From: an uncultured Gemmatimonadales bacterium
Lineage (GTDB): Bacteria; Gemmatimonadota; Gemmatimonadetes; Gemmatimonadales; GWC2-71-9
Direction of reading: 5' to 3'
Assembly: GCA_963748815.1 (NCBI GenBank)
Contig: CAVVKJ010000005.1
Location: 384,001 to 448,000, forward strand
Length of the DNA: 64,000 nucleotides
How positions within the stretch are numbered: position 1 is the stretch's first letter; each line of letters starts with the position of its first letter. This document shows positions 5,509-20,994 of this stretch, piece by piece. A program made the position numbers and the translations under genes. Under the pieces are notes generated by a model. The model had not been told where the DNA came from, searched no databases, and saw nothing but the letters and a program-made list of their open reading frames with translations.

Positions 5509-7943
5509 ATGAATCTCCTCACATCCCTGCAGGGTCCCCTGGCCGGACGGTACCGGCTCGAGCGCGAGCTCGGGCGCGGCGGCATGGCCATCGTGTTCCT
5601 CGCCGAAGACCTCAAGCACCACCGCCAGGTAGCCATCAAGGTGCTCCGGCCGGAACTCGCCGCCTCGGTCGGCCACGATCGGTTTCTCCGGGAAATCACC
5701 CTCGCCGCCGGGCTGCAGCATCCGCATATCCTCCCGCTCCACGACAGCGGCGCCATCGAGGGCGATGGGGAGACGCTGCTCTTCTACGTGATGCCCTTTG
5801 TTCAGGGCCAGTCGCTGCGGCAGCGGCTGGATGAACAGGAGCGGCTTCCCCTTGACGAAGCCCTCGCGATCGCCCGGGAGGTGCTGAGCGCCCTCGAGTG
5901 CGCGCACACGGCCGGGGTTGTTCACCGCGACATCAAGCCCGAGAACATTCTCCTGTCCGGTGGTCACGCCCTCGTCGCCGACTTCGGCATCGCGGTCGCC
6001 GCGCAATCGACCCCCGGAGACTCACGGCTCACCGACGTCGGCTCGGTCGTCGGGACCCCTGCCTACATGAGCCCTGAGCAGGCTGCCGGCGAGCGCGACA
6101 TCGACGCCCGCAGCGACCTTTATGCCTTCGGATGCGTCCTCTTCGAAATGCTCGCGGGCACGCCGCCGTTCACGGGGCACTCCCCCCAGGCGATCATGGT
6201 CAAGCGGTTGACCGAGGATGCGCCCTCGGTGCGGCGGCTGCGCGAGGATGTGCCCGACGAGGTCAACGCGGCGCTCCAGCGGGTGCTCTCGCGCGGGCCG
6301 GCCGATCGCTTCCCCACGGCGGCCGCTTTCGCGGCGGCGTTGCAGCCCGGGCACGTGGGCGGGGCGACACCGGTGCCAGGGCCGGGGGGCCGGCCGCGCA
6401 GCCGGACGGTGCTCCCCGTCATCGGGCTCGTGGCCGTCGTGGTCTTCGGAATCCTGTGGTTTCTCCGGGCGCCCGCACCGCCGGCATCCGGGTGGCGGCT
6501 GGCGCTGACCGACCTGACGGTGGCGAGCCCGGACGCCTCGACGAACTATCTCCGCAGCGGCATTCCGGAATACCTTGTCGCGGAGCTCCATCGGCTGCCT
6601 GGTCTCGACGTGATCCCGATGAGCCTCTCTCGGCGAGACTCGGCCGTTACTTCGCCTGTGGAGCTTGGCCGAAAGCTGGGCGCCACGGCGGTGCTCACCG
6701 GTACGCTCGCACATTTTGGCGGCGCGCTGACCATCAACGCCGAACTGGTCCGGGTGTCCGACAGCGAATTGCTATGGACCGGGCACTTCGAGTATCCCGA
6801 CACCGACTACGCCGGCGTGATCCCCGCCGTCGTGGCCGGCATCGCGGACTCCCTGCAACTGCAGCTGAGCGGGGGCGCCCGCCGCGACGCGATCGAACGA
6901 TCCACGGTCAATCCCGTCGTGCTGGACCTGCTGCTGCGCGCCGGTCACCGGTGGATGCAGGGCATCGCCGGCGCCAGCGGCGACTCGGCCACCGTCGATT
7001 CGGCCCGGGTCCTCTACGCGAGGGTGCTCGAGCGCTCGCCGCGAAACCCGCGGGCCATCGCCGGATTGGGGAACTACTACTACATCTCCTACATCCGGGG
7101 GTGGGGCGTGCCCGGGGGCCTCTCGGCGGACGAGGTGCACGCCCGCGCCGACTCGCTGACCGACCTCGTCCTGTCGCTCGACAGCACGGTCATCATCTCC
7201 TACAATCCGGTCGTGGTCTCCCGGCTCTACCTGGATGACGACTTCGACGGTGCCGGCAAGGCCGTCGACAAGATGCTCGCACTGGATTCCGGGTACGCGG
7301 AGGCCTACCGGTACCGCGGAATCATCCGTCAGGAGCTCCTCGGCGACCTGCAGGGGGGCATCGCGGACTTTGAGCACTCGGTCGACCTGGAACCCAGCGT
7401 GCAGCGTCTCAACAGCCTCGCAGCGGCGCTGATGGCCGCTCGGCGGTATCAGGAAGCGGCGGCGGTCCTCGAGCGCTCGATGATGTCCCGCCCGAGTGCT
7501 GGCGCGATGTCTCGCCTTGTCACTGTCTACGACAAGCTCGGGCGGCCCGCCGACGCTATCCGCGTCCGGCGACTCATGGATTCGACGGGTGCATCCGCCG
7601 CGCCCTACGAGGTCGCACTCGCTGCTCGGGACACCGCGGGCTATACGCGCGCCCACCGGGCAGAGCTCCGCCACGTCGGCGGACTCGCTGATCGCCCGGC
7701 TGGATCGAGGCCGATGTCGTTCCCGCGGAGCGATTCAACGTGGCGGAGCTCCGGATCGGTGCGCTCCTCTGCGAGCTGGGCGACTCGAAGAAGGCCATGG
7801 ACCTCGTCGAGAGCCTCTACCGGATCCGCCCCAAGCGCTTGCGTTGGATCGTCACCAATGTGGACCTCGGCTGCCTCCGCGATGACCCGCGGTACCTCCC
7901 CATGGTCACGGCTGCCGGCCTGGAGCGCTACCTGCGGAACTGA
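5509..7943 (+). CDS. Hanks-type Ser/Thr kinase with TM segment, TolB-N-like and TPR-like C-terminus (frameshift near 7680)
   Basis: LGRGGMA, VAIK, HRDIKPEN, DFG and GTPAYMSPEQ motifs; C-terminus LRDDPRY in ORF 7740..7943; the ORF-track fusion to argF is an artefact. Confidence 0.88.
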
Positions 7944-8040
7944 CGAGCCGGAGCATCGCCAGCTTGCCCCACCCCTCCCATTCGGGCTAAACTCCGTCCT
8001 GCCAATTTGGCTGTTTTCTCCTCCAGATTCCGGTTGGTCC

Positions 8041-8940
8041 ATGTCCAAGCGCGACTTCCTCTGCATCCCGGATTTCACCGCGGCCGAGCTGCTGTCCCTC
8101 CTGGACCTGGCGGCCCGAATGAAGTCCGGCGCGTATCAGGAGCGCCCGCTGACCGGCAAGACGCTGGCGATGATCTTCGCCAAGAGCTCGACCCGGACCC
8201 GCGTCTCCTTCGAGGTCGGTACCCTCCAGCTCGGGGGCCACGCGCTCTTCCTCTCGTCGCGCGACATCCAGCTGGGCCGGGGCGAGCCGATCCGGGACAC
8301 GGCACGCGTGCTCTCGCGGATGGTGGACGGCATCATGATCCGCACCTTCGCGCATGCGGATGTGGAGGAGCTGGCCCGGTTCGCCTCCGTGCCGGTCATC
8401 AACGGACTGACCGACCTGCTCCACCCCTGCCAGATCCTCGCCGACCTCCTGACCACCCTCGAGGCGTTCGGCACGCTCAAGGGGAAGACGGTGGCGTGGA
8501 TCGGCGACGGCAACAACATGTGCAACAGCTGGCTCCACGCCGCCGGAATCCTGGGTTTCGAGCTGCGCGTCGCCTGTCCCGAGGGCTACGAACCGGACCG
8601 CGCCATCTTCCAGCGGAACGCGACGTTGACCAAGCTGCTGGTGACGGTCGATCCCGACGAGGCGGCGGCGGGGGCGCACGTCGTCACGACCGACGTCTGG
8701 GCGTCCATGGGCCAGGAAAGCGAGGCGGCCCAGCGGGCGCAGGCGTTCAAGGGATATCTGGTGGACGAGGCGCTGATGCAGCGCGCCGACCCGGGCGCGA
8801 TCTTCCTGCACTGCCTCCCCGCGCACCGCGGGGAAGAGGTGACCGAGTCCGTGCTCGAAGGCCCGCAGTCGCGGGTGTGGGACGAGGCGGAGAACCGCCT
8901 CCACGTGCAGAAGGCCCTGATGGCGACGTTGATGGGGTAG
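8041..8940 (+). CDS. argF: ornithine carbamoyltransferase
   Basis: STRTRVSFE, HPCQ, DVWASMG and FLHCLP motifs. Confidence 0.96.
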   Translation: MSKRDFLCIPDFTAAELLSLLDLAARMKSGAYQERPLTGKTLAMIFAKSSTRTRVSFEVGTLQLGGHALFLSSRDIQLGRGEPIRDTARVLSRMVDGIMIRTFAHADVEELARFASVPVINGLTDLLHPCQILADLLTTLEAFGTLKGKTVAWIGDGNNMCNSWLHAAGILGFELRVACPEGYEPDRAIFQRNATLTKLLVTVDPDEAAAGAHVVTTDVWASMGQESEAAQRAQAFKGYLVDEALMQRADPGAIFLHCLPAHRGEEVTESVLEGPQSRVWDEAENRLHVQKALMATLMG

Positions 8941-12227: not shown

Positions 12228-12256
12228 TTGACAGTTCTCAGGTCCGGGCCAATATT
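12228..12256 (+). promoter_or_regulatory. sigma70-like promoter
   Basis: TTGACA-17 nt-AATATT upstream of GGAGG and the GTG at 12293. Confidence 0.5.
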
Positions 12257-12292
12257 GACGATGGCACGCTCCCCTAGGCCGTGGGGGAGGGC

Positions 12293-13987
12293 GTGATCTT
12301 TTCGATCGACTCCGAAGCCTGCGTGGCCTGTCTGGCCTGCGTCCGCGTCTGTCCGACGGAAGCGGTCGCCGTGGACGGGGAGCAGGTGCAGATCGTGGAT
12401 GAGGCGTGCATTGCGTGCGGCGAGTGTCTGCCGGCGTGCCCGCATCAGGCCATCCACGCGAGCGGAGAAATCGGTCGCGCGCTGACGGTCGCGGCTCGGG
12501 GCGACGGCATTCTGATCCTGAGTTCGGAAGCGACGGCGCACTTTTTCCCGGCTACGCCGGAGCAGGTGGTCAACGCCTGCTACGCGGCCGGGTTCCGCAC
12601 GGTGCATCGCGGGGTCATCGGCGATGAACTCGTGGCGGCGGAGTACTTGAGTCTCTGGCGTGACGAGGGGTGGGGCACGCTGATCCGGTCCACCGATCCG
12701 GTGGTGGTCGAGACGGTGCGCATCGATTACCCCGAGCTGGTGCCGTACCTGGCGCCGGTCACGATACCTGCGGTGGCGGAGGCGCGGTATCTTCGCGCGC
12801 AGCACGGGCAGGAGCTTCGCATCGTGTACGCCGGCGTCGCGGCGCCGCGGAACACGCCGGAGCTCGATGCCGCCGTCACCTTCGACGACCTCGAGCGGAT
12901 CTTTCAGTTGCGGGGCGTCTCGGTGCTCGCGCAGGCCGATTTCTTCGCGCGGATTCCCGAGGAACGGCGCCGGCACCTGAGCGCCGCGGGCGGCCTGCCG
13001 CTCGCCATGCTCGAGGAGGCGCGCCACGCGAGCCGCCGGTTCCGCACCATGCGGGGGCTCAAGCACCTGCCGGCGCTGGCCCAGGCGGTGGCGGTCGACC
13101 GGCTGGACCTGGGGTTCGTGGACCTGCTCTCCTTCGAGGGGGGGCTCGACCACCCGCTGCTCGGTCCGAAGGACCAGCTCTACTGGCGGCGCGCCCTCCT
13201 CGCGAGCGCGGAGCCGCCGCGGAGCCCGCGACCGGTGGTGGATGGAGCGGTGGTGGCGAGTATCGGGGCCACGTTCGACATCCGGCCCCGGCGGCTGGCG
13301 TCCGATCCGACCGCGGTGGCAGCCTTGCTCGACGCCATCGGTCCGGGGCCCAATGGGCGCCCTTGGGACTGCGGGGCCTGCGGCTTCACCACCTGCGCGC
13401 GGTTCGCGTCCGCGGCGGTGCTCGGCCGGGCGACGCTCCGCCAGTGCCCGCCGTACCAGGAGCGCCGCGCGGAAGAGGCCTCGCGCGAGGCGGCGGTGGA
13501 CCTGCTGACCGGACTCGCCACCTTCCGGGTGCTGCGCGACCGGCTGAGCCACGAGATTGAACGGAGCAAGCGCAGCGAGGAAGGGTTCGCGGTGCTGTTC
13601 ATCGACCTCGACCGCTTCAAGCTGCTGAACGACCGGTTCGGGCACGAGGCAGGCAACGAGGTCCTGAAGGCGGTGGCGGCGGAAATCCGGAGCGCAGTGC
13701 GCGCCTCCGACCTTGCCGCCCGCTACGGAGGCGACGAGTTCGTCGTCATCCTGACCCGCACCGACCTCCATGGCGCCCGCCGAGTGGCGGAGGCGCTTCG
13801 GGCCGGCATCGAAGGGGTCGGGCGCCGACTGGGGTACGAGGTCGGGGTCGTGACCGTTAGCATCGGGCTGGCCGAGTTCGACCCGGCGAGCCCCACCGAG
13901 GGCGACCTGCTGGTGACCGCCGATCGCGCCTTGTACCAGGCCAAGGCCACGGGCCGGAACGCCGTGGCCAACGAAGGGGCCGCCTGA
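12293..13987 (+). CDS. Fe-S diguanylate cyclase: 2x[4Fe-4S] ferredoxin + degenerate [FeFe]-hydrogenase-like domain + FeS domain + GGDEF
   Basis: CVACLACVRVCP, CIACGECLPACP, CGACGFTTC..C, DLDRFK, RASD and ARYGGDEF. Confidence 0.85.
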   Translation: MIFSIDSEACVACLACVRVCPTEAVAVDGEQVQIVDEACIACGECLPACPHQAIHASGEIGRALTVAARGDGILILSSEATAHFFPATPEQVVNACYAAGFRTVHRGVIGDELVAAEYLSLWRDEGWGTLIRSTDPVVVETVRIDYPELVPYLAPVTIPAVAEARYLRAQHGQELRIVYAGVAAPRNTPELDAAVTFDDLERIFQLRGVSVLAQADFFARIPEERRRHLSAAGGLPLAMLEEARHASRRFRTMRGLKHLPALAQAVAVDRLDLGFVDLLSFEGGLDHPLLGPKDQLYWRRALLASAEPPRSPRPVVDGAVVASIGATFDIRPRRLASDPTAVAALLDAIGPGPNGRPWDCGACGFTTCARFASAAVLGRATLRQCPPYQERRAEEASREAAVDLLTGLATFRVLRDRLSHEIERSKRSEEGFAVLFIDLDRFKLLNDRFGHEAGNEVLKAVAAEIRSAVRASDLAARYGGDEFVVILTRTDLHGARRVAEALRAGIEGVGRRLGYEVGVVTVSIGLAEFDPASPTEGDLLVTADRALYQAKATGRNAVANEGAA

Positions 13988-14031
13988 GGGCGGCCGCAGC
14001 CCCCACAGGCATTCAGCGACAGGACATCGAG

Positions 14032-14787
14032 ATGGCGTTCAATTCCGCGAGGCAGTCCGACGCCGGCTTCCAGGCCGCGCGCACCACGCCAAGTGGTGGG
14101 CACGGTGGTGAGGCGCCCGATCCCTGGGGCGTGCGCCGGGCGGAAAACCTCCTGACCACGCTCGAGGGGATTCTCTCCGCGCGGGTCGTCACCACGCCGC
14201 TCGGCGAGGTGAGCGAGGTGCACATCCTGGCCCAGTCGGGGCTCGCGCCGAAGCAGCTGGTGCGGAACATCGAGTCGGCGCTCCTGGCGCAGCTCGGCCT
14301 CCGGGTGGACCACCGCAAGATCAGCATCGCGCAGACGGCGGACGTCAAGCCGATCGAGGCGCTCGAAAAGGAGGCGGTGCGGAGCCAGGCGCTCCACCGG
14401 GCCATCCTCTTCGAGGACCTGACGGTGGCGCCGGGCAAGCGCGCGCACCGGATCACCATCAGCGTGAGCCTCAGCTTCCTCGGCCGGAAGGAAACGGCGG
14501 AAGAGGAGAGCAGTGACACGCCGCGGAGCCGGGTAGAGGCGGCGGCGCGGGCCACGGTCTTGGTGCTCGACCGGTTGCTGGAGGACTCGTCGGTGGCGCT
14601 CGAGGGGGCCAAGATCGTCCCCGCCTTCGACCGGGACTTCGTGTTCGTGGCGGTGCAGGGGCTGGGCGGGCGCGAGTCGCTCGTGCTGACCGGCAGCGCG
14701 CAGATCAAGGAAAGCGCCGAGCGGGCCGCGGTCTTTGCGGTGCTCGACGCAACCAACCGATGGACGGAACTCCGCCGACCGCGATAG
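14032..14787 (+). CDS. conserved hypothetical protein; C-terminal LeuA-allosteric-like fold
   Basis: host-like codon usage; EVHILA..PKQLVRNIESAL..DHRKISIAQ N-domain; C-domain of two beta3-alpha units ending AVLDATNR. Confidence 0.75.
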   Translation: MAFNSARQSDAGFQAARTTPSGGHGGEAPDPWGVRRAENLLTTLEGILSARVVTTPLGEVSEVHILAQSGLAPKQLVRNIESALLAQLGLRVDHRKISIAQTADVKPIEALEKEAVRSQALHRAILFEDLTVAPGKRAHRITISVSLSFLGRKETAEEESSDTPRSRVEAAARATVLVLDRLLEDSSVALEGAKIVPAFDRDFVFVAVQGLGGRESLVLTGSAQIKESAERAAVFAVLDATNRWTELRRPR

Positions 14788-14800
14788 GCGCGGGCGGCGA

Positions 14801-14950
14801 TTCTACCAACCCGAGCGGAGGGAACAGAGCGAGGTAGGGGGTCGAGTCTTCAAGAGGCAGCGGAGACTAGCGGACAACAGAGCGGAGCGTCTGGTAGGCC
14901 ATAGCGAGGCCGACCACTTCCCGAGTCACTGATGTACTCGAAGGGAGGTG
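14801..14950 (+). promoter_or_regulatory. putative structured cis-regulatory leader with repeats and an anti-SD hairpin
   Basis: six AGCG(G/A)(A/G)(G/C) units in predicted loops and junctions; CACTTCCC pairs with GGGAGGTG. Confidence 0.6.
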
Positions 14951-14956
14951 ACGCTC

Positions 14957-15037
14957 ATGTTGCAGATTACTTGGCTTGCCGCCGCTGTGAAGTTCGTGGC
15001 GAATCTGTTCCTGGCCGAAGGCCAGGACTGGGCCTAG
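14957..15037 (+). CDS. 26-aa peptide MLQITWLAAAVKFVANLFLAEGQDWA
   Basis: strong SD AAGGGAGGTGA just upstream of ATG; fills the gap before the HD-GYP gene; absent from the ORF track. Confidence 0.72.
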   Translation: MLQITWLAAAVKFVANLFLAEGQDWA

Positions 15038-15080
15038 TTAGGGCCTGATGCCTCGACCCCCCACCGAGCTGTTCCAATCC

Positions 15081-16484
15081 ATGAGATCACTCACCAAGAC
15101 CAATCTGTTCATCGCGTTCATGGCTTCTGTCGCCGTGGCGCTGGGCGTGTTGGCTTGGCAGCATCGGCAGCCCTCCCCGGGCATTTGGCCGCTTCTCAGC
15201 TTCATCTTCATGGCGTTTCTGGTGGAGCAGAGCACTACGGAGCTCAAGGTTTCCGCGCGCGGGTCGACCTCCTTCGTGATGCATATGTCCGCCGGTTTGA
15301 TTTTTGGTGGATTTTGGGGTGGGGTAGTCGCAGCTTCCTCAACGGCTCTTGGGCAACTGTCGATTGGTAACCCACCAGCAAAGACGCTGTTCAATATCGC
15401 CCAGCGCGCGGCATCTGTGCTTATCGCTGTTCTTGTCTATCGCCTGCTCGAAGGCGGCCTACCTCCTGCATACATGCAAGTCGTTGGAACTGTTGAGTCC
15501 TCGGCGATTCAGCGGGACTTCTTCCTATTCTTCGCATATGCCGCAACGTACTTCGTAGTGAATTCTATGGCGGTGAGTGGGGTTGTGGCGCTGAGCGCGG
15601 AGCGCTCATTCCGAGATGTGTGGAGCCTCAACACCCGCGGTGTCATCGGGTACGACCTCGGGGCCAGCGCCATCGCCCTGCTGCTGGCGTGGCTCTATAC
15701 CTGGTTCCAGGCCACTTGGGAGCTCGGCTCCATCGGTCTGGTCCTGGTGGTGATTCCGATTGTGGCGGTGCGGCATGTGTACGGGCTCTACCACCAGTTG
15801 CAGGAGAGCGGCCAGGAACTCCTCCAGGTGATGGTCAAGGCCATCGAGGCCCGCGACCCCTACACCTCCGGCCACTCCCTCCGGGTGAGCCAGCTTTCCC
15901 GGCTCATTGCGCTGGAAATGGGCCTCCAGATTCGCGACGTGGAACAGGTGCACACCGCCGCGCTGCTGCACGACGTCGGCAAGATTCACGAGGAGTTCGC
16001 GCCGCTGCTGCGGAAGGAAGACCGGCTGACCGCCGACGAAACGGCGCTGATGCAGACCCACTCCGCCCGGAGCGCCGAGCTGGTGGGGATCATCTCGAAG
16101 TTTCGCGGCTTCATCCAGGAGTCGGTGCGCCACCACCACGAGCGGTGGGACGGGAAGGGATACCCGGCCGGCCTCTCCGGGCACGAGATCCCGCTGGCCT
16201 CCCGGATCATCCTGGTGGCCGACACCATCGACGCCATGACCACCGACCGCCCCTACCGGAAGCGGCTCCCGCTCGAAGTCGTCATCGCGGAGCTCCAGAA
16301 GTGCCGCGGCGGGCAGTTCGACCCCGAGGTGGTGGAACATGTGGTATCGTCCGTCGCGGTGCGACGTCTGATCACCGTCGGTGTCGAATCGTCTCCGATG
16401 CCTGCCACTGTCACAGTCTCCGACCCCGGCGCCACTCGTGCTGGATGGGCGAAGAAGTCGTTCTGGAAGGGGCGGTCGGCCTAG
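15081..16484 (+). CDS. membrane-anchored HD-GYP c-di-GMP phosphodiesterase (MASE-like sensor); start may be 15048
   Basis: about 7 TM helices, then EARDPYTSGHS, LHDVGKI, HHERWDGKGYP and DAMTTDRPYRK. Confidence 0.92.
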   Translation: MRSLTKTNLFIAFMASVAVALGVLAWQHRQPSPGIWPLLSFIFMAFLVEQSTTELKVSARGSTSFVMHMSAGLIFGGFWGGVVAASSTALGQLSIGNPPAKTLFNIAQRAASVLIAVLVYRLLEGGLPPAYMQVVGTVESSAIQRDFFLFFAYAATYFVVNSMAVSGVVALSAERSFRDVWSLNTRGVIGYDLGASAIALLLAWLYTWFQATWELGSIGLVLVVIPIVAVRHVYGLYHQLQESGQELLQVMVKAIEARDPYTSGHSLRVSQLSRLIALEMGLQIRDVEQVHTAALLHDVGKIHEEFAPLLRKEDRLTADETALMQTHSARSAELVGIISKFRGFIQESVRHHHERWDGKGYPAGLSGHEIPLASRIILVADTIDAMTTDRPYRKRLPLEVVIAELQKCRGGQFDPEVVEHVVSSVAVRRLITVGVESSPMPATVTVSDPGATRAGWAKKSFWKGRSA

Positions 16485-16499
16485 CAGAGCCGAGACTTC

Positions 16500-19400
16500 T
16501 CAGATATCGAGCATCCCGAAAGCTCGCAGTTCATTTGCAGCTCCCAATGGGAGCTTAACCAGCCTCCTCCACATCTCCTCTCGTTCCCCCTCATCGGCAT
16601 CATTGGACTTGTGAATCGAGCCAGACCTTGGCGTTCAGGACCTCGGCCTGATCAATACTGTCTAGGGAATCTCTGGCGCGACAAGAGTGTCGCTAGGGCT
16701 AGTGCGCGCCTCTTCGATGGGGATGTCGCCGTTCGCGGCACTCTTGGCAAGCCATCGTGCGAAGGGACCAGCAAGAGAATCGGATTGAAGCTTCTCGCAT
16801 CTCCCCCGTCAGTGCCCCTATCGCGCTTTCCTGCGCCTCCCTGTTTCGTCCAAGTAAGGCGAGGACGTCGGCTGCGCGTAGCTGCCACAACTGGCGTACC
16901 CAACGTTGATCGACATGTTGAAGGGCTGCATTTCCTCGACGGAGTTCATCCAGGGCTTCCATTGTTTCACCACGAAGTGCATGGCCCTCTGCCAGGATGT
17001 AGTGGAGATTTTGATCAAGAATATCGATCTGTTGACTTCCACTTCTCGCCGGTGGCCCTGCTCGCCCATTGCAACTGGGCGTCCTGAATTGCCAAGTCGC
17101 GAATGGAACAGTGCAATGTTTGCAAGGAAAGAGCCGCAGCCGGCGCTCTTCGCCCATTTCACGCGCCGCAGCCACTCCACGCTCCCCGATAGCAAGCGCA
17201 ACTTCGTATTCGCCTAGGCTGCTATGGATAGCGCAACGCCCCAACAGTAGGGCGAGGTAGACTGAGTTCTTGATCTTGTTGGCCTCAAGGTCACCGATGA
17301 CCTCATCTATGACTTCAAGGCTGCGCGCTCGGTCGCCAGAGAAGTAGAGGCACAAGGCCTTGCCCAAGGGCGTATTCCCCCTTGTCCTCCAGGGAAAGTG
17401 CGCTGAACTCTTCGCTCTCAAGTTGCTTCCAGATGTCTGCGAGCAACGATCTGTCTCGGGTACTCCCGAAATAGTCTCGCTGCAATCCACAGTGCCCGAA
17501 GTCGCGTGTTGGGCTCTTCTGCCGATCTCGCTTCGCGGAGAAGATTCATTGCAATATCCCGACTCCGATCTGCCGTCCGGTCGTTTACTAGTTGTTCTGC
17601 GTAGAGCCGCAACACGTTTCGTCTTGTGAGAATCTCTGCGCGGGACGAGGCTCTGGACCGCGTCAAGCGACGCCATCGACTCCCGCATCCTCCCTTGTTC
17701 CTGGAGCGACTCTCCGAGCAGAAGGAGGGCTTCGCTCTTGTCCGGCTCCTTGAGCCGATCCATTGCCGTGGAGAGCCCACGCTCCGCCTCGTGCGGGGCC
17801 CCTCCGCGCATCGACTCCCGCGCCCCACGCAACAGATAGGGTGTCGCCTCATCGGGCCTCCCGGCGCGGATCAGGTGCCAGGCGATTTCCAGCCCCGGGA
17901 TCCGCCCGCCGTTCGCCTCGATGGCGAGCAGCCGGGAGACGACCTCGCCGTGCAGCGCCGTCCGCATCGGCTTGGGAATGCCGAGGTACGCATGCCCCCG
18001 CGTCAATTCGTTCACGAATTCGAGTCGCTCCTCCGTTTCGCGCAGCAACCGGGATGACCGGAGCGCCTCCATCGACTGACCCGTCGCGCCGAGCCCCAGG
18101 TCCACGATCTGGTACATCGGGAATTCGTTCAGTCTCGGCCCCAACACCGCCGCGAGCTGCAGCGCCAGACGTGCCGGTGCGTCGAGCCCCTCACAGATCC
18201 GGTCCAGCGCCATCCGGTAGGCATCTTCCGGGGGTGAGCGTTGACCCAACTCCTCGCGCATCGCCGGGACGGCGAGCGCGAGGCTGCCTTCGCCGCTGCT
18301 GATCCACTCGCTTACGAAGAGCTCGAGTGCGAGCGGATATCCCCCTGCGGCGCGGAGCATGGCGTCGCGCACCGATTTCCCCGGATCGGGACCGTCGGCG
18401 GTCAGCGTGTCGAGCATCTCGGCCGCCTCGTCCGGCGCCATTGGCGGCACCTCGAGGGAGACAAACCCGAGCCGGGTGTGGCTCTCGCGCAGGCGGGCGA
18501 TGTTCGGCGACTCGTTGGGACCCGTGGGCCGCGCGGCCAGCGCGATCATGACCCGCTCGGACTCGAACCGGCGGGCGAGAAGGTGGATCACGGACAGGCT
18601 GGCGTCGTCCGCCATGTGGAAGTCATCGACGACCAGCATCACCGGGGTCTCCTCGGCGATGGTCCGGAGCAGCGACTCCATCGCGTCGGTCACCCGAATG
18701 CGGAACGACTCCCCGTGGAGCTGCAGGGACGGGGGAAGGCTGGGGAATTGCTCCCGGAGCGCCGGAACCGCCTGGCTCAGGTCGGCCAACGACTGGGGAG
18801 AGGTGCCCAGCGCCTCGGGGCGCTCAAGCAGTCCGCGGACCAGCGCGCCGAGGGCGGCGTAGGGAATCTCCCGCTCCAACTCGTAGCACTGCACCCGGCT
18901 GGTGACGGCCCCGTCGAGGCTGACGGCCGTCATCAGCCGCTGCAGCAGGGTGCTCTTGCCGATGCCCGATTCGCCCAGGACCAGGGCGTGCGTGGGGACG
19001 CCGCGCGTGGTGCGCTCCCAGGCTTCGTACATCGTCTGGTACTCGGCGGTCCGACCGATGAAGGTGCGATCCCGCCATTGCTCGGTGGGGACGCGCGGGC
19101 GGTTGCCGTCGCCGCCCCCCTCGAGTGTCCCGCGGCGGAGGCGCCTCGCCATCGCCTCGAGCTGCTCGGAAGGCTCGGCGTGCAGTTCGGTATGGAGATC
19201 ATGCTTCCAGGTCTCGAACGCCTTGAGGGCGCCGATGCGGTCGCCGGCGAACGCCCGCGCTTCGATCCGTGCCCGGATCGCCGCTTCGCTCAGTGCATTG
19301 TGGCGCAGGGTCCGCTCGGCGAGTGGTTCGATGCCGGTGAAGTCTCCCGTCCGGCGGCAGTAGTCCATCTGGCGGACCAGTGCCGCCTCGATCGAGGGCC

Positions 19401-19836
19401 AGAGCCGGGCGCGCTGCTGGTCGCGCCAATGGTTGAAGCTGGGAGCGTCCGGGACGTCGAAGTCCTCGAGAAAGGCATCCACCTCGAGGGCAGGCAGAAG
19501 GTCCGTGGCCAGGACCTCCCCCCGTTGCAGCCGGTCCAGGTCACACTCCAGCTGGACCGTGGTGCGAATGGTGTAGGTGTCGCCGGGGAACGACTTGGGA
19601 CCCACCCGGTTCCGGAGTGCCCAGATGGCGGTCCCCATCGAATGGCGCGCCTCGTTCATCCCGGCGTTCGACCAAAGGAGGTCGGCAAGCCGCTCGCGAC
19701 GGATGGGAGCCCGCCCCTCCATGGTGAGATAGATCAGGAGCGCGAGCTGCTTTTGGGTCCTGAGGCGGATCGGGCTCCCGCTGGCGTCGAGGAGGGCGGG
19801 ATGACCCAGACAACGGAGGTATGCGGGCTTGCCCAT
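16500..19836 (-). CDS. SARP/BTAD + AAA ATPase (STAND) + TPR regulator; several frameshifts in the 3' third
   Basis: RRERLADLLW, FNHWRDQQR, GESGIGKS and VDDFHMAD motifs; TPR-like pieces continue in shifting frames to ..ELRAFGMLDI* at 16500. Confidence 0.8.
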
Positions 19837-20106
19837 CGAAGGCTCCGGTAGCGTGGTGCGGATACCATGGGGTCGCGGGCTCAACGGGGGATCAACGACG
19901 AGAGGATCAGGTGTTGAGAGATTGTAATGTTCCTCGCCTCCGCGATTTGTCCAGAGCCCTGCATCACGGTTCGCAAGCCTTTTCCCTGCAACGTGTTGCA
20001 CGTCACGGTACGGCCCCGATGTTGCGACTCTCTCCTTTGACTCGGTAGATTGCCCCGCCTTTGTGACCCCGCGCACTCCCCATTGCGCCTCAATCGGAGA
20101 TTCTCA

Positions 20107-20994
20107 ATGCGAAATACATCTCGCCTGCTGACCGGCGCCCTGCTGGCCACCACCATCGGCCTCGGCGCCTGCAGCGATTCGTCCGGCCCCAGCACCACCC
20201 CCCTCTCGGCTTCCAACGCCGCCGATGTCGGGGCCGCTGTGGCCAGCACCGCCGACCTGGCACTCGTCGGCATCGCCCCGACCATCCCCAATTTCGGGAC
20301 CGGATTCCCCCTCTTCTTCGCCAACGGTCGGTCAATTGGCGGCGGGATGACCTTCTCTCCCCCCGACTCGCTCCCCAACTGCCCCAGCGCCAGCAACCTG
20401 ACCGACACCGACGGTGACGGCGTGCCCGACAACGCCATGTGGACCTTCAGCGCCGCCGACTGCACCCAGACCGACATCGAGGGCAATCGGAGCGTGGTGA
20501 CCGGCACCGTGGTGCTCACCGATCCGGGCCTCACCGCCGGCTACGACCTGCAGCTCAACAGCCTGACCGGCCAGTACTACCAGAGCGGCGACACCAGCCC
20601 GGTCCTGCAGCTCATCATGGACGGCGACTGGTCGCTCCGCGGCACCAGCGAGACCATCGCCGCCGACCAGGACTACACCTACGTCCTGACCGTGCAGAAC
20701 GAGCGGGTGACGCTCGCCAACGACCTGGCCGTGGCCTTCAACGCCGCGAACGGCACCGCGATTTCCTGGGGCGTGCCGCTCCCCGACGGCACCATCAGCA
20801 TCGACGGCGCCTGGCGGGTGTCCTCGAGCCGAGAGACCCATGCGCTTACCCTGACCACCGTGACGCCGCTGTCGTACGACGCGGAGTGTGCGGGGATCAC
20901 GGCCGGCGTCATTGCGGCCCGCGGGACCGGCGGCACGGTGCGGGTCACCTGGACCGCCTGCGGCGTGCACACGGAGACGTTCACCGCCGATTGA
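20107..20994 (+). CDS. lipoprotein, beta-rich, unknown function
   Basis: signal peptide with LGAC lipobox; DTDGDGVPD Ca-binding-like motif. Confidence 0.8.
   Translation: MRNTSRLLTGALLATTIGLGACSDSSGPSTTPLSASNAADVGAAVASTADLALVGIAPTIPNFGTGFPLFFANGRSIGGGMTFSPPDSLPNCPSASNLTDTDGDGVPDNAMWTFSAADCTQTDIEGNRSVVTGTVVLTDPGLTAGYDLQLNSLTGQYYQSGDTSPVLQLIMDGDWSLRGTSETIAADQDYTYVLTVQNERVTLANDLAVAFNAANGTAISWGVPLPDGTISIDGAWRVSSSRETHALTLTTVTPLSYDAECAGITAGVIAARGTGGTVRVTWTACGVHTETFTAD

Follow-up and report, generated by a model that had tools for sequence, protein, structure and literature searches.

A conserved module in Gemmatimonadales: a two-domain hypothetical protein, a structured leader, a tryptophan-ended micropeptide and a MASE9-HD-GYP protein

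The locus and the distribution of the module

The DNA considered here is a stretch of 64,000 nucleotides, referred to throughout as the window (positions 384001-448000 of contig CAVVKJ010000005.1, assembly GCA_963748815.1), from an uncultured Gemmatimonadales bacterium whose genome has a guanine-plus-cytosine (GC) content of 69%, is 86% complete and has its relatives among the Gemmatimonadales. Between a sigma-54 activator gene on one side and a moxR/atp region on the other, it carries a module that is real and conserved. Its core has four parts: a two-domain protein (hyp), a structured leader RNA, a micropeptide ending in tryptophan, and a membrane protein in which a MASE9 sensor is joined to an HD-GYP domain. 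An earlier sequence-only reading of this DNA had gathered six parts into a signalling system in which the peptide would act, much as a pheromone does, on cyclic di-GMP (c-di-GMP) metabolism. The features of the locus are listed below; SD denotes a Shine-Dalgarno sequence.

12228..12256, + strand: sigma-70-like promoter TTGACA-17-AATATT ahead of the gene run; a weak consensus match only, with 1 found against 0.7 expected in shuffles
12281..13987, + strand: GGDEF cyclase with an Fe-S/degenerate hydrogenase-like sensor (Fer4, Fe_hyd_lg_C-like, FeS and GGDEF)
14032..14787, + strand: hyp, two-domain protein without Pfam or NCBIfam match (predicted model); proposed binder of the leader words
14814, 14828, 14859, 14869, 14881 and 14903 (span 14814..14907), + strand: six AGCG(G/A) words, the last in the P2 loop
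14817..14852, + strand: 5' arm of the long-range helix P0, starting in an SD-like GGAGGG with no start codon behind it
14885..14956, + strand: three-way junction, with P1 at 14885-14891/14950-14956, the P2 hairpin at about 14893-14916 and P3 at 14917-14921/14945-14949
14957..15037, + strand: gene of the 26-residue micropeptide, with a strong SD, a hydrophobic/amphipathic body and the tail (A/S)EG(Q)xW(x)
15046..15080, + strand: 3' arm of P0, finishing just ahead of the HD-GYP start
15081..16484, + strand: MASE9-HD-GYP phosphodiesterase (predicted), with Pfam families, intact motifs and no local SD
16500..19836, - strand: convergent wHTH-BTAD-AAA_16-TPR (STAND) regulator, gene start at 19836 and 3' end approximate; its TPR tail is hypervariable and frameshifted in the assembly

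Most of the gene assignments of the earlier reading are borne out. The domain families match for the Fe-S GGDEF enzyme, the membrane HD-GYP protein combines MASE9 with an HD-GYP domain whose motifs are intact, and the BTAD-ATPase-TPR regulator converges on the run. The predicted model of the protein at 14032..14787 does have two domains, with no family match, and the 26-residue open reading frame (ORF) shows the codon-position pattern of coding sequence. The leader, described as repeat-rich and structured, folds better than chance, but its repeats come down to six 5-nt words and no long repeats. Its main feature, a long-range helix that encloses the peptide gene, is absent from that reading. 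The HD-GYP gene probably starts at 15081, because the ATG at 15048 reads ACG in related loci (L005 and L010-L012).

The check proposed with that reading, whether gene order, repeats and a small ORF ending in Trp are conserved among homologs, found all of them kept. Leader and ORF are present in 38 of 40 related loci, the two misses being a contig end and a short paralog. Among 80 further loci, all from close relatives and counted where the flank sufficed, HD-GYP is found in 48/48, STAND in 42/43 and the cyclase in 72/72, and a strict pattern recovers the leader in 58 of the 64 with enough flank; in the first locus set STAND is convergent in 26 of 28. The module is near-universal among the sampled Gemmatimonadales and recurs across Gemmatimonadota, in two Bacillota records and in metagenome contigs. 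In 80 distant metagenome loci with GC contents of 33-71%, HD-GYP is the next gene in 48/54 and a strict filter retains the peptide in 47/69. Of 151 genomes of the phylum scanned with a hyp profile, 119 give a match, which in some comes from a short paralog only, and five complete genomes without hyp have no MASE9 match either. Eight loci duplicating earlier genomes, and frameshifted or truncated ORFs, were left out of the counts (MASE9 n=67, TPR n=48); L029, mis-cut in one alignment, was not used further; and the genome tallies for hyp and for the RNA motif take in G030 (the source of L027), G097 and G132, on which no conclusion rests. A scan of genome contigs returned only Gemmatimonadales-type loci, a metagenome scan with a single Bacillota protein as query gave no match, plasmid searches with MASE9 gave nothing new, the Atlas assigned no names, and PADLOC gave only generic HD/ATPase matches on the locus. 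No description of the module was found in the literature searched, which included one passage of PMC1950547 and lay largely outside subscription papers.

Comparison of these loci reduces the six proposed parts to a core of four. The Fe-S cyclase is present in 17 of 18 loci of family f1 and in none of 21 loci of families f2 and f3, of which 18 have an activator gene directly upstream; it reappears in some other orders of the phylum. Four loci of another class have hyp, leader, peptide and MASE9-HD-GYP with neither cyclase nor STAND. Both are likewise absent from the Natranaerobius and Subdoligranulum records (Bacillota), where hyp, an AGCGG leader, the peptide, a closing helix, HD-GYP and DUF5317 follow in order. 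The cyclase is therefore accessory to the core, and cyclase and STAND are lineage-specific additions, STAND being linked in only part of the phylum. The cyclase itself has intact GGDEF and RxxD motifs, and its guanine-reading (Watson-Crick) position is Asn in 76 of 76 motif matches. In the part of PMC6456294 that deals with this position it is Asp in canonical GGDEF enzymes and Ser/Thr in Hypr (cGAMP) enzymes, and Asn is not discussed; the cyclase fits neither class. The earlier assignment of c-di-GMP synthesis thus keeps its GGDEF motif but not an assured product, because Asn stands where canonical Asp or Hypr Ser/Thr would stand.

Individual loci vary on this plan. An extra gene with its own promoter-like site, presumably encoding an excisionase-type helix-turn-helix plus receiver protein, is inserted between hyp and leader in L021-L023, L027 and L047, so that the leader follows about 0.8 kb on. 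Upstream of hyp, four of eight distant loci tested (L174, L182, L202, L225) have cspA-type matches that stay under the gathering score, and other distant loci (L187, L204, L232 and others) have a tandem MASE9-HD-GYP pair behind a single peptide. A B12-binding radical SAM gene closely follows HD-GYP in 4/4 loci of another class of the phylum (L153-L156; for example L154:3713-5056), and is a candidate peptide- or Trp-modifying enzyme. Elsewhere in the window (5509-8940), a Ser/Thr kinase ORF (7641-8940 region) is fused in frame to argF, which looks like an assembly frameshift artefact.

The leader RNA and its candidate partner

The leader is a covarying RNA motif outside Rfam. The leader-peptide stretch folds with a z of -4.15, equalled by 0 of 100 shuffles, and no Rfam match on the leader was found at E<=1 in the window or in 12 other loci. 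The AGCG(G/A) words average 4.6 per 150 nt in 38 leaders, against a genome background of 0.47; in 51 distant loci the mean is 3.5, against 0.37 in shuffled sequence, and at least two words are present in 49. P1 and P3 together pair the SD and spacer of the peptide gene, and the loop of P2 displays NUAGCGR. Across 37 loci, 91% of the cells of the junction are paired and double changes occur at 11 of 20 pairs, more than in any of 500 shuffles or any slid control. RNAalifold gave no consensus on an order-wide alignment, and a covariance model (R1) was built on 37 f1 and f3 loci, since family f2 folds the inner part differently. At E<1e-6 R1 has 65 matches, spread over 64 of 150 genomes. All but one follow a full-length hyp gene at a distance of up to about 1 kb, in some cases with an intervening gene, and the exception lies at a contig start; one genome (G128) has two modules and two RNA motifs. 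In f2 genomes R1 returned weak matches off the locus in 2 of 31, and the Bacillota leaders gave E of about 0.2 or no match, misses that are not to be read as absences. AGCGR leaders are kept in 3/3 loci where hyp is transcribed divergently from the peptide, a persistence that would fit a partner acting in trans.

The long-range helix P0 joins sequence that precedes the peptide start by about 100-150 nt to sequence shortly past the peptide stop. Over 82 loci its cognate arms reach -31.2 kcal/mol, whereas non-cognate arms stay at -20.0 and a control window at -22.4; z falls below -2 in 52 of the 82 when whole windows are used and in 35 of 50 distant loci, and the G-rich/C-rich polarity of the arms is reversed in 11/82. 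RNA runs contain only 5-15% of the searched sequence words. Some RNA contigs from relatives span hyp, leader and peptide, and others leader, peptide and HD-GYP; their absence over the TPR tail carries no meaning. Short contigs from relatives in two RNA studies are confined to leader and peptide (window 14804-15063) and end in adapter near both P0 ends (X4 from 14804, X3 at 15063); their depths are 144 and 563, against 2-8 for most of the listed pieces, although depth cannot rank the parts. These short contigs hint weakly at an RNA that stands alone, closed by the helix. They would also lend weak support to the view of the locus as a type I toxin-like micro-gene, in which a hydrophobic peptide with a sequestered SD is carried on an mRNA closed from 5' to 3' and the neighbouring genes are passengers, an architecture similar to that of fold-back-inhibited toxin mRNAs. 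We find this scarcely credible: the gene occurs as a single copy, its link to hyp and MASE9-HD-GYP holds across phyla, no more than 26 of 81 peptides attain transmembrane hydrophobicity, and no Rfam antitoxin or toxin leader matches the window or the 12 other loci.

At the other end of P0, the HD-GYP start is without a local SD in 53 of 59 loci and has one in six. In 42 of the 59 an SD-like word (<= -7 kcal/mol) with no start codon precedes P0 by about 5 nt, compared with 27% of random windows. Distal SD and P0 together suggest, by analogy, a split ribosome site of the kind described for T4 genes 25 and 38 in the relevant part of PMC3014915, where an SD distant from the AUG is drawn near by a helix (27 to 11 nt and 22 to 5 nt). 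The likeness is that a far SD would be brought near the start by a helix, here a predicted one; the difference is that T4 loops out a short hairpin, whereas about 230-260 nt including a whole gene would be looped out here, leaving a residual spacing of about 15 nt. A simpler alternative is that P0 occludes the start until ribosomes completing the peptide relieve it, and this fits f2 and f3, in which the G-rich 3' arm of P0 is itself the local SD of HD-GYP.

The candidate reader of the leader words is hyp, whose predicted model (pLDDT 94.5, pTM 0.67) consists of two domains. The N-terminal domain has the order alpha-beta-beta-alpha-beta, a conserved PKQxVRNxESAL and a conserved face made up of K48, R52, N53, E55, S56, D67 and R69 (numbered from window 14110). 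Compared with type II KH domains its alpha/beta topology is compatible, the uS3 rows are weak and the consensus has no GxxG. The C-terminal domain matches the LeuA/CMS allosteric domain, of (beta-beta-beta-alpha)2 fold (Z 9.5, root mean square deviation (rmsd) 3.0, 109 aligned; Foldseek E 5e-7), with weaker dsRBD rows in the structure comparison and no sequence match in Pfam or PDB. A stand-alone 136-residue paralog of this LeuA-type domain is encoded outside the window (G000:C5:566401-566808) and is matched in most relatives. CsrA/RsmA and TRAP are repeat-binding translational regulators that read the words ANGGA and (G/U)AG. The leader shares with their targets several short words near a ribosome site, some in hairpin loops, and differs from them in its word, AGCG(G/A), and in a motif that occurs once per locus and not across a regulon. 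CsrA was not found in the host genome (86% complete).

The micropeptide, MASE9 and the exchanged block

The micropeptide has a Trp within its last three residues in 76 of 85 cases, measures 14-34 residues, and is amphipathic in 54/81, with the transmembrane-level hydrophobicity already mentioned confined to 26/81. Pairwise codon differences among 11 related loci at equal ORF lengths number 493, 295 and 152 at third, first and second positions, a pattern that points to protein-level constraint along the whole ORF. A second peptide-like match, on contig C8, was discarded as it lies inside a long ORF.

This constraint bears on an explanation in which the ORF acts only in cis. Its peptide product would be incidental, and its translation would unwind P0, or stall at the Trp codon, to control HD-GYP in the manner of mgtQ-mgtB. 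In Salmonella, according to the part of PMC8092293 on this operon, the small intergenic ORF mgtQ lies over alternative stems and governs translation of the next, membrane-protein gene. The present locus likewise has a small ORF overlapping stems before a membrane-protein gene; unlike mgtQ, it has one long covarying helix round the ORF, an SD of its own buried in a word-bearing junction, and apparent selection on the peptide as a protein. Control in cis would account for a P0 3' arm that begins within the ribosome footprint of the stop codon and finishes at the HD-GYP start, for the local SD formed by that arm in f2 and f3, and for the varying length of the peptide. It would not account for the whole-ORF constraint, the conserved hydrophobic body and tail motif, the single Trp codon near the stop with no Trp run, or the fact that the peptide, and not the adjacent leader, tracks MASE9. 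We consider it unlikely.

That last relation comes from partial Mantel tests on the 34 closest of 40 complete loci (the six distant ones being left out), with hyp, HD, AAA, their third positions and the leader as controls. As judged from these sequence comparisons, the peptide tracks MASE9 (r 0.43; 0.36 after TPR) more than it tracks the TPR tail (r 0.30; 0.16 after MASE9), figures that are inflated by kinship and physical linkage and whose p-values are overstated; the leader control gives r 0.07 with MASE9 (not significant) and 0.20 with TPR. The earlier reading had proposed a test of covariation between peptide and sensor; in whole-sequence similarity, it is the membrane domain that the peptide appears to track.

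The same reading had offered the convergent regulator as a second possible receptor, and the peptide could indeed be imagined as the ligand of the STAND TPR tail, after the fashion of RRNPP proteins or MalT, with HD-GYP as a co-regulated output. The steady convergence of STAND in both sets of close relatives would suit such a role, as would a TPR tail that is the most variable part of the block and whose profile matches Rap and NprR, among generic TPR proteins. Yet identical peptides occur with TPR tails only 44-47% identical, the association of peptide with TPR after MASE9 is no better than that of the leader control, the ntrC-like and moxR synteny around the module is conserved as well, and the core exists without STAND in the four loci of another class and both Bacillota records. 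We give this role very little credence. A lipoprotein-like gene without family, divergent from STAND (window 20098-20994; 56-80% identity within the genus, patchy beyond), is a possible STAND target.

In this assembly the frame of the STAND tail changes several times, while most orthologs have an unbroken tail of about 380 residues; the breaks cluster in a minority of assemblies, often hitting MASE9 too, and are probably assembly errors. The foreign composition that had been ascribed to both sensor domains is real as far as low GC is concerned: it is 0.55-0.59 over MASE9 and the TPR tail, a level (<= 0.59) reached by 2.3% of 300-nt genome windows, and three other BTAD-ATPase loci of the host genome have 0.63-0.77. 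The idea of separate foreign inserts does not hold. Where hyp is at least 95% identical (9 pairs), identity is 95% for HD, 83% for AAA, 68% for MASE9 and 46% for TPR. In the closest pair the synonymous rate (dS) is 0.09 for hyp against 0.86 for MASE9, 0.48 for HD, 0.51 for AAA and 1.11 for TPR, that is, raised 5- to 12-fold throughout. Positive selection was not seen, the ratio of nonsynonymous to synonymous rates (dN/dS) being at most 0.10 where finite, sensor parts included, with dS saturating. These sequence data are best described by a single block of allele exchange that peaks at the two sensor parts.

MASE9 matches Pfam PF20972 (33.5 bits, cut-off 24.3) and has eight membrane segments with a short hairpin. 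In the HD-GYP domain (Pfam HD_5, E 1.5e-34) the HD, HHExxxGxGYP and RxxR motifs are all present in 61 of 67 domains, the last as RPYR, which we take to be the c-di-GMP type; from these motifs the protein is predicted to be a c-di-GMP phosphodiesterase. A MASE9 model of the ortholog L078 (pLDDT 93.7) has as its top 14 structure rows only S-components of energy-coupling factor (ECF) transporters (Z 10.1-13.4, rmsd 2.8-4.1, 152-188 aligned), followed by MreD at Z 8.0. With FolT1, RibU, ThiT, BioY and NikM/CbiM the model shares a six-helix core with an L1 hairpin and conserved residues on the helices and loops lining the pocket. It departs from them in its extra first and last helices, its apparently inverted orientation, its fusion to HD-GYP with no ECF module, and an identity of 8-15%. 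Loops L1, L3 and L5 carry 1.8, 2.5 and 2.9 Lys plus Arg, against 0 and 0.5 for L2 and L4, and conserved residues cluster at L1, L3 and L5. In L078 numbering, the residues predicted to line the pocket are S65, F68, K104, N108, Q111, N164, W184, Y194 and D195. The corresponding loops of FolT1 lie outside, according to the structural passage of PMC4820897. Because L1, L3 and L5 are basic here, the pocket of MASE9 appears to open to the cytoplasm, the inverse of FolT1. MASE9 would thus have the six-helix fold of the S-components (in the predicted model) without their outward L1/L3/L5 loops or their role as stand-alone transporter subunits, and we regard it as an S-component-like binding pocket, not as a member of that family.

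Galperin and Chou (bioRxiv 10.1101/2021.11.05.467447) list Thermotoga maritima TM1467 and Streptomyces venezuelae HdgA as MASE9-HD-GYP proteins and propose that the MASE9 ligand binds inside the membrane. These have the same domain pair, eight membrane segments and a short intramembrane hairpin; what is added here is the attached micropeptide, RNA leader and upstream hyp, and the predicted S-component-like fold. The main text of that preprint does not contain the word 'peptide', and where it treats MASE9 it mentions neither a ligand, leader or hyp nor a fold. In the model, a cytoplasmic pocket would suit both a peptide that stays in the cell and has an aromatic residue at its end, and the ligand binding within the membrane that is proposed for MASE9.

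Small-protein modulators of membrane sensors are familiar from MgrB-PhoQ and SafA, and allelic pheromone loci from agr and comQXP. The module resembles them in pairing a tiny hydrophobic protein with a membrane sensor and in a strain-variable block of signal and sensor, and differs in that its output is a c-di-GMP phosphodiesterase, its control lies at translation and no AgrB-type processor was found. A secreted and processed pheromone, sensed from outside by MASE9 as part of an agr- or comQXP-like allelic cassette and close to the circuit first proposed, would explain the leader-plus-core look of the peptide ((A/S)EG(Q)xW), whose residues next to the Trp vary, and the raised dS across MASE9, HD, AAA and TPR. 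The radical SAM gene behind HD-GYP in the four loci of another class, and DUF5317 in the same place in both Bacillota records, might then supply processing. Against it, neither AgrB (PF04647) nor DUF5317 was found in the host genome (86% complete), and the conserved run contains no peptidase or exporter gene; an agr system pairs an AgrB processor with a histidine-kinase receptor, whereas the receptor candidate here is the HD-GYP protein. Peptides of only 14-16 residues exist, the pocket loops look cytoplasmic, and dN/dS stays at or below 0.10 in the sensor parts. A pheromone is, in our view, improbable.

The proposed circuit and its meaning

The reading we favour, though we would put its chances at about even, is a four-part, post-transcriptionally gated unit for intracellular c-di-GMP degradation, in which hyp gates translation of a peptide partner of MASE9. 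As the covariation shows, the mRNA folds with the SD and spacer of the peptide gene buried in P1 and P3, and P0 closes leader and peptide gene beside the HD-GYP start. Hyp, probably dimeric through its LeuA-type domain, would bind the AGCG(G/A) words and decide whether the junction opens, and a small ligand at that domain may tune it. Ribosomes on the peptide gene would then reach the 3' arm of P0 (at most about 15 nt past the stop), so that synthesis of peptide and HD-GYP is coupled; in f1, P0 may also assemble the split ribosome site, because the HD-GYP start there has no SD of its own and an SD-like word lies just 5' of P0. Fold, topology and covariation finally suggest that the inner membrane provides the anchor for the peptide, within it or at its surface, and that the Trp-x tail of the peptide binds the MASE9 pocket from the cytoplasm, setting phosphodiesterase activity. 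Peptide, MASE9 and neighbouring DNA would be exchanged between strains as matched alleles.

Several points weigh against this picture. Five hyp paralog loci lack the module, and the loci compared include, for a negative control, no peptide-MASE9 locus known to be without hyp. For hyp, sensing of a metabolite and binding of RNA are suggested by fold and linkage only; its N-terminal domain matches none but common folds (Z 7-9: CDF C-terminal domain, acyl-CoA ligase cap, EscJ, BolA-like) and has neither a GxxG loop in its consensus nor net basic charge. P1 is nearly invariant, with 5 of 7 pairs unchanging. For the split site, the residual spacing, with a median of 15 nt, exceeds the 5 and 11 nt of T4, the anticorrelation of distal and local SD is weak (rho -0.24, p 0.04, n=74), and the distal SD of the window is paired within the lowest-energy fold. 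Foldseek gives the MASE9 fold an E of 0.03 only, and a helical-bundle Z near 13 can reflect a common arrangement. To the inflation of the Mantel figures may be added that some of the signal could stem from recombination moving both together, because the peptide gene adjoins the MASE9 start, and that mutual information between peptide tail and MASE9 columns (54 related rows) is too noisy to point cleanly to the pocket.

In its fullest form, which we hold to be rather doubtful, the reading would join an AGCG(G/A)-reading, ligand-sensing RNA-binding protein and a gene-looping helix that lends a distant SD, so that peptide and phosphodiesterase are made alternately, to a terminal Trp that serves as endogenous ligand for an S-component pocket derived from transporters and inverted. 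Alleles of peptide and pocket would be swapped between strains, and the whole would form a class that crosses phyla.

The signalling of Gemmatimonadales has, to our knowledge, been little studied, and MASE9 is a widespread sensor for which we know of no input. With the module, MASE9 would gain a predicted fold (that of an S-component), a predicted side (the cytoplasm), candidate residues for its pocket and, in the neighbouring gene, a candidate for its ligand. The module further provides a covarying RNA motif outside Rfam, a candidate family of RNA-binding proteins that have an allosteric domain, and what may be a long-range split ribosome site.

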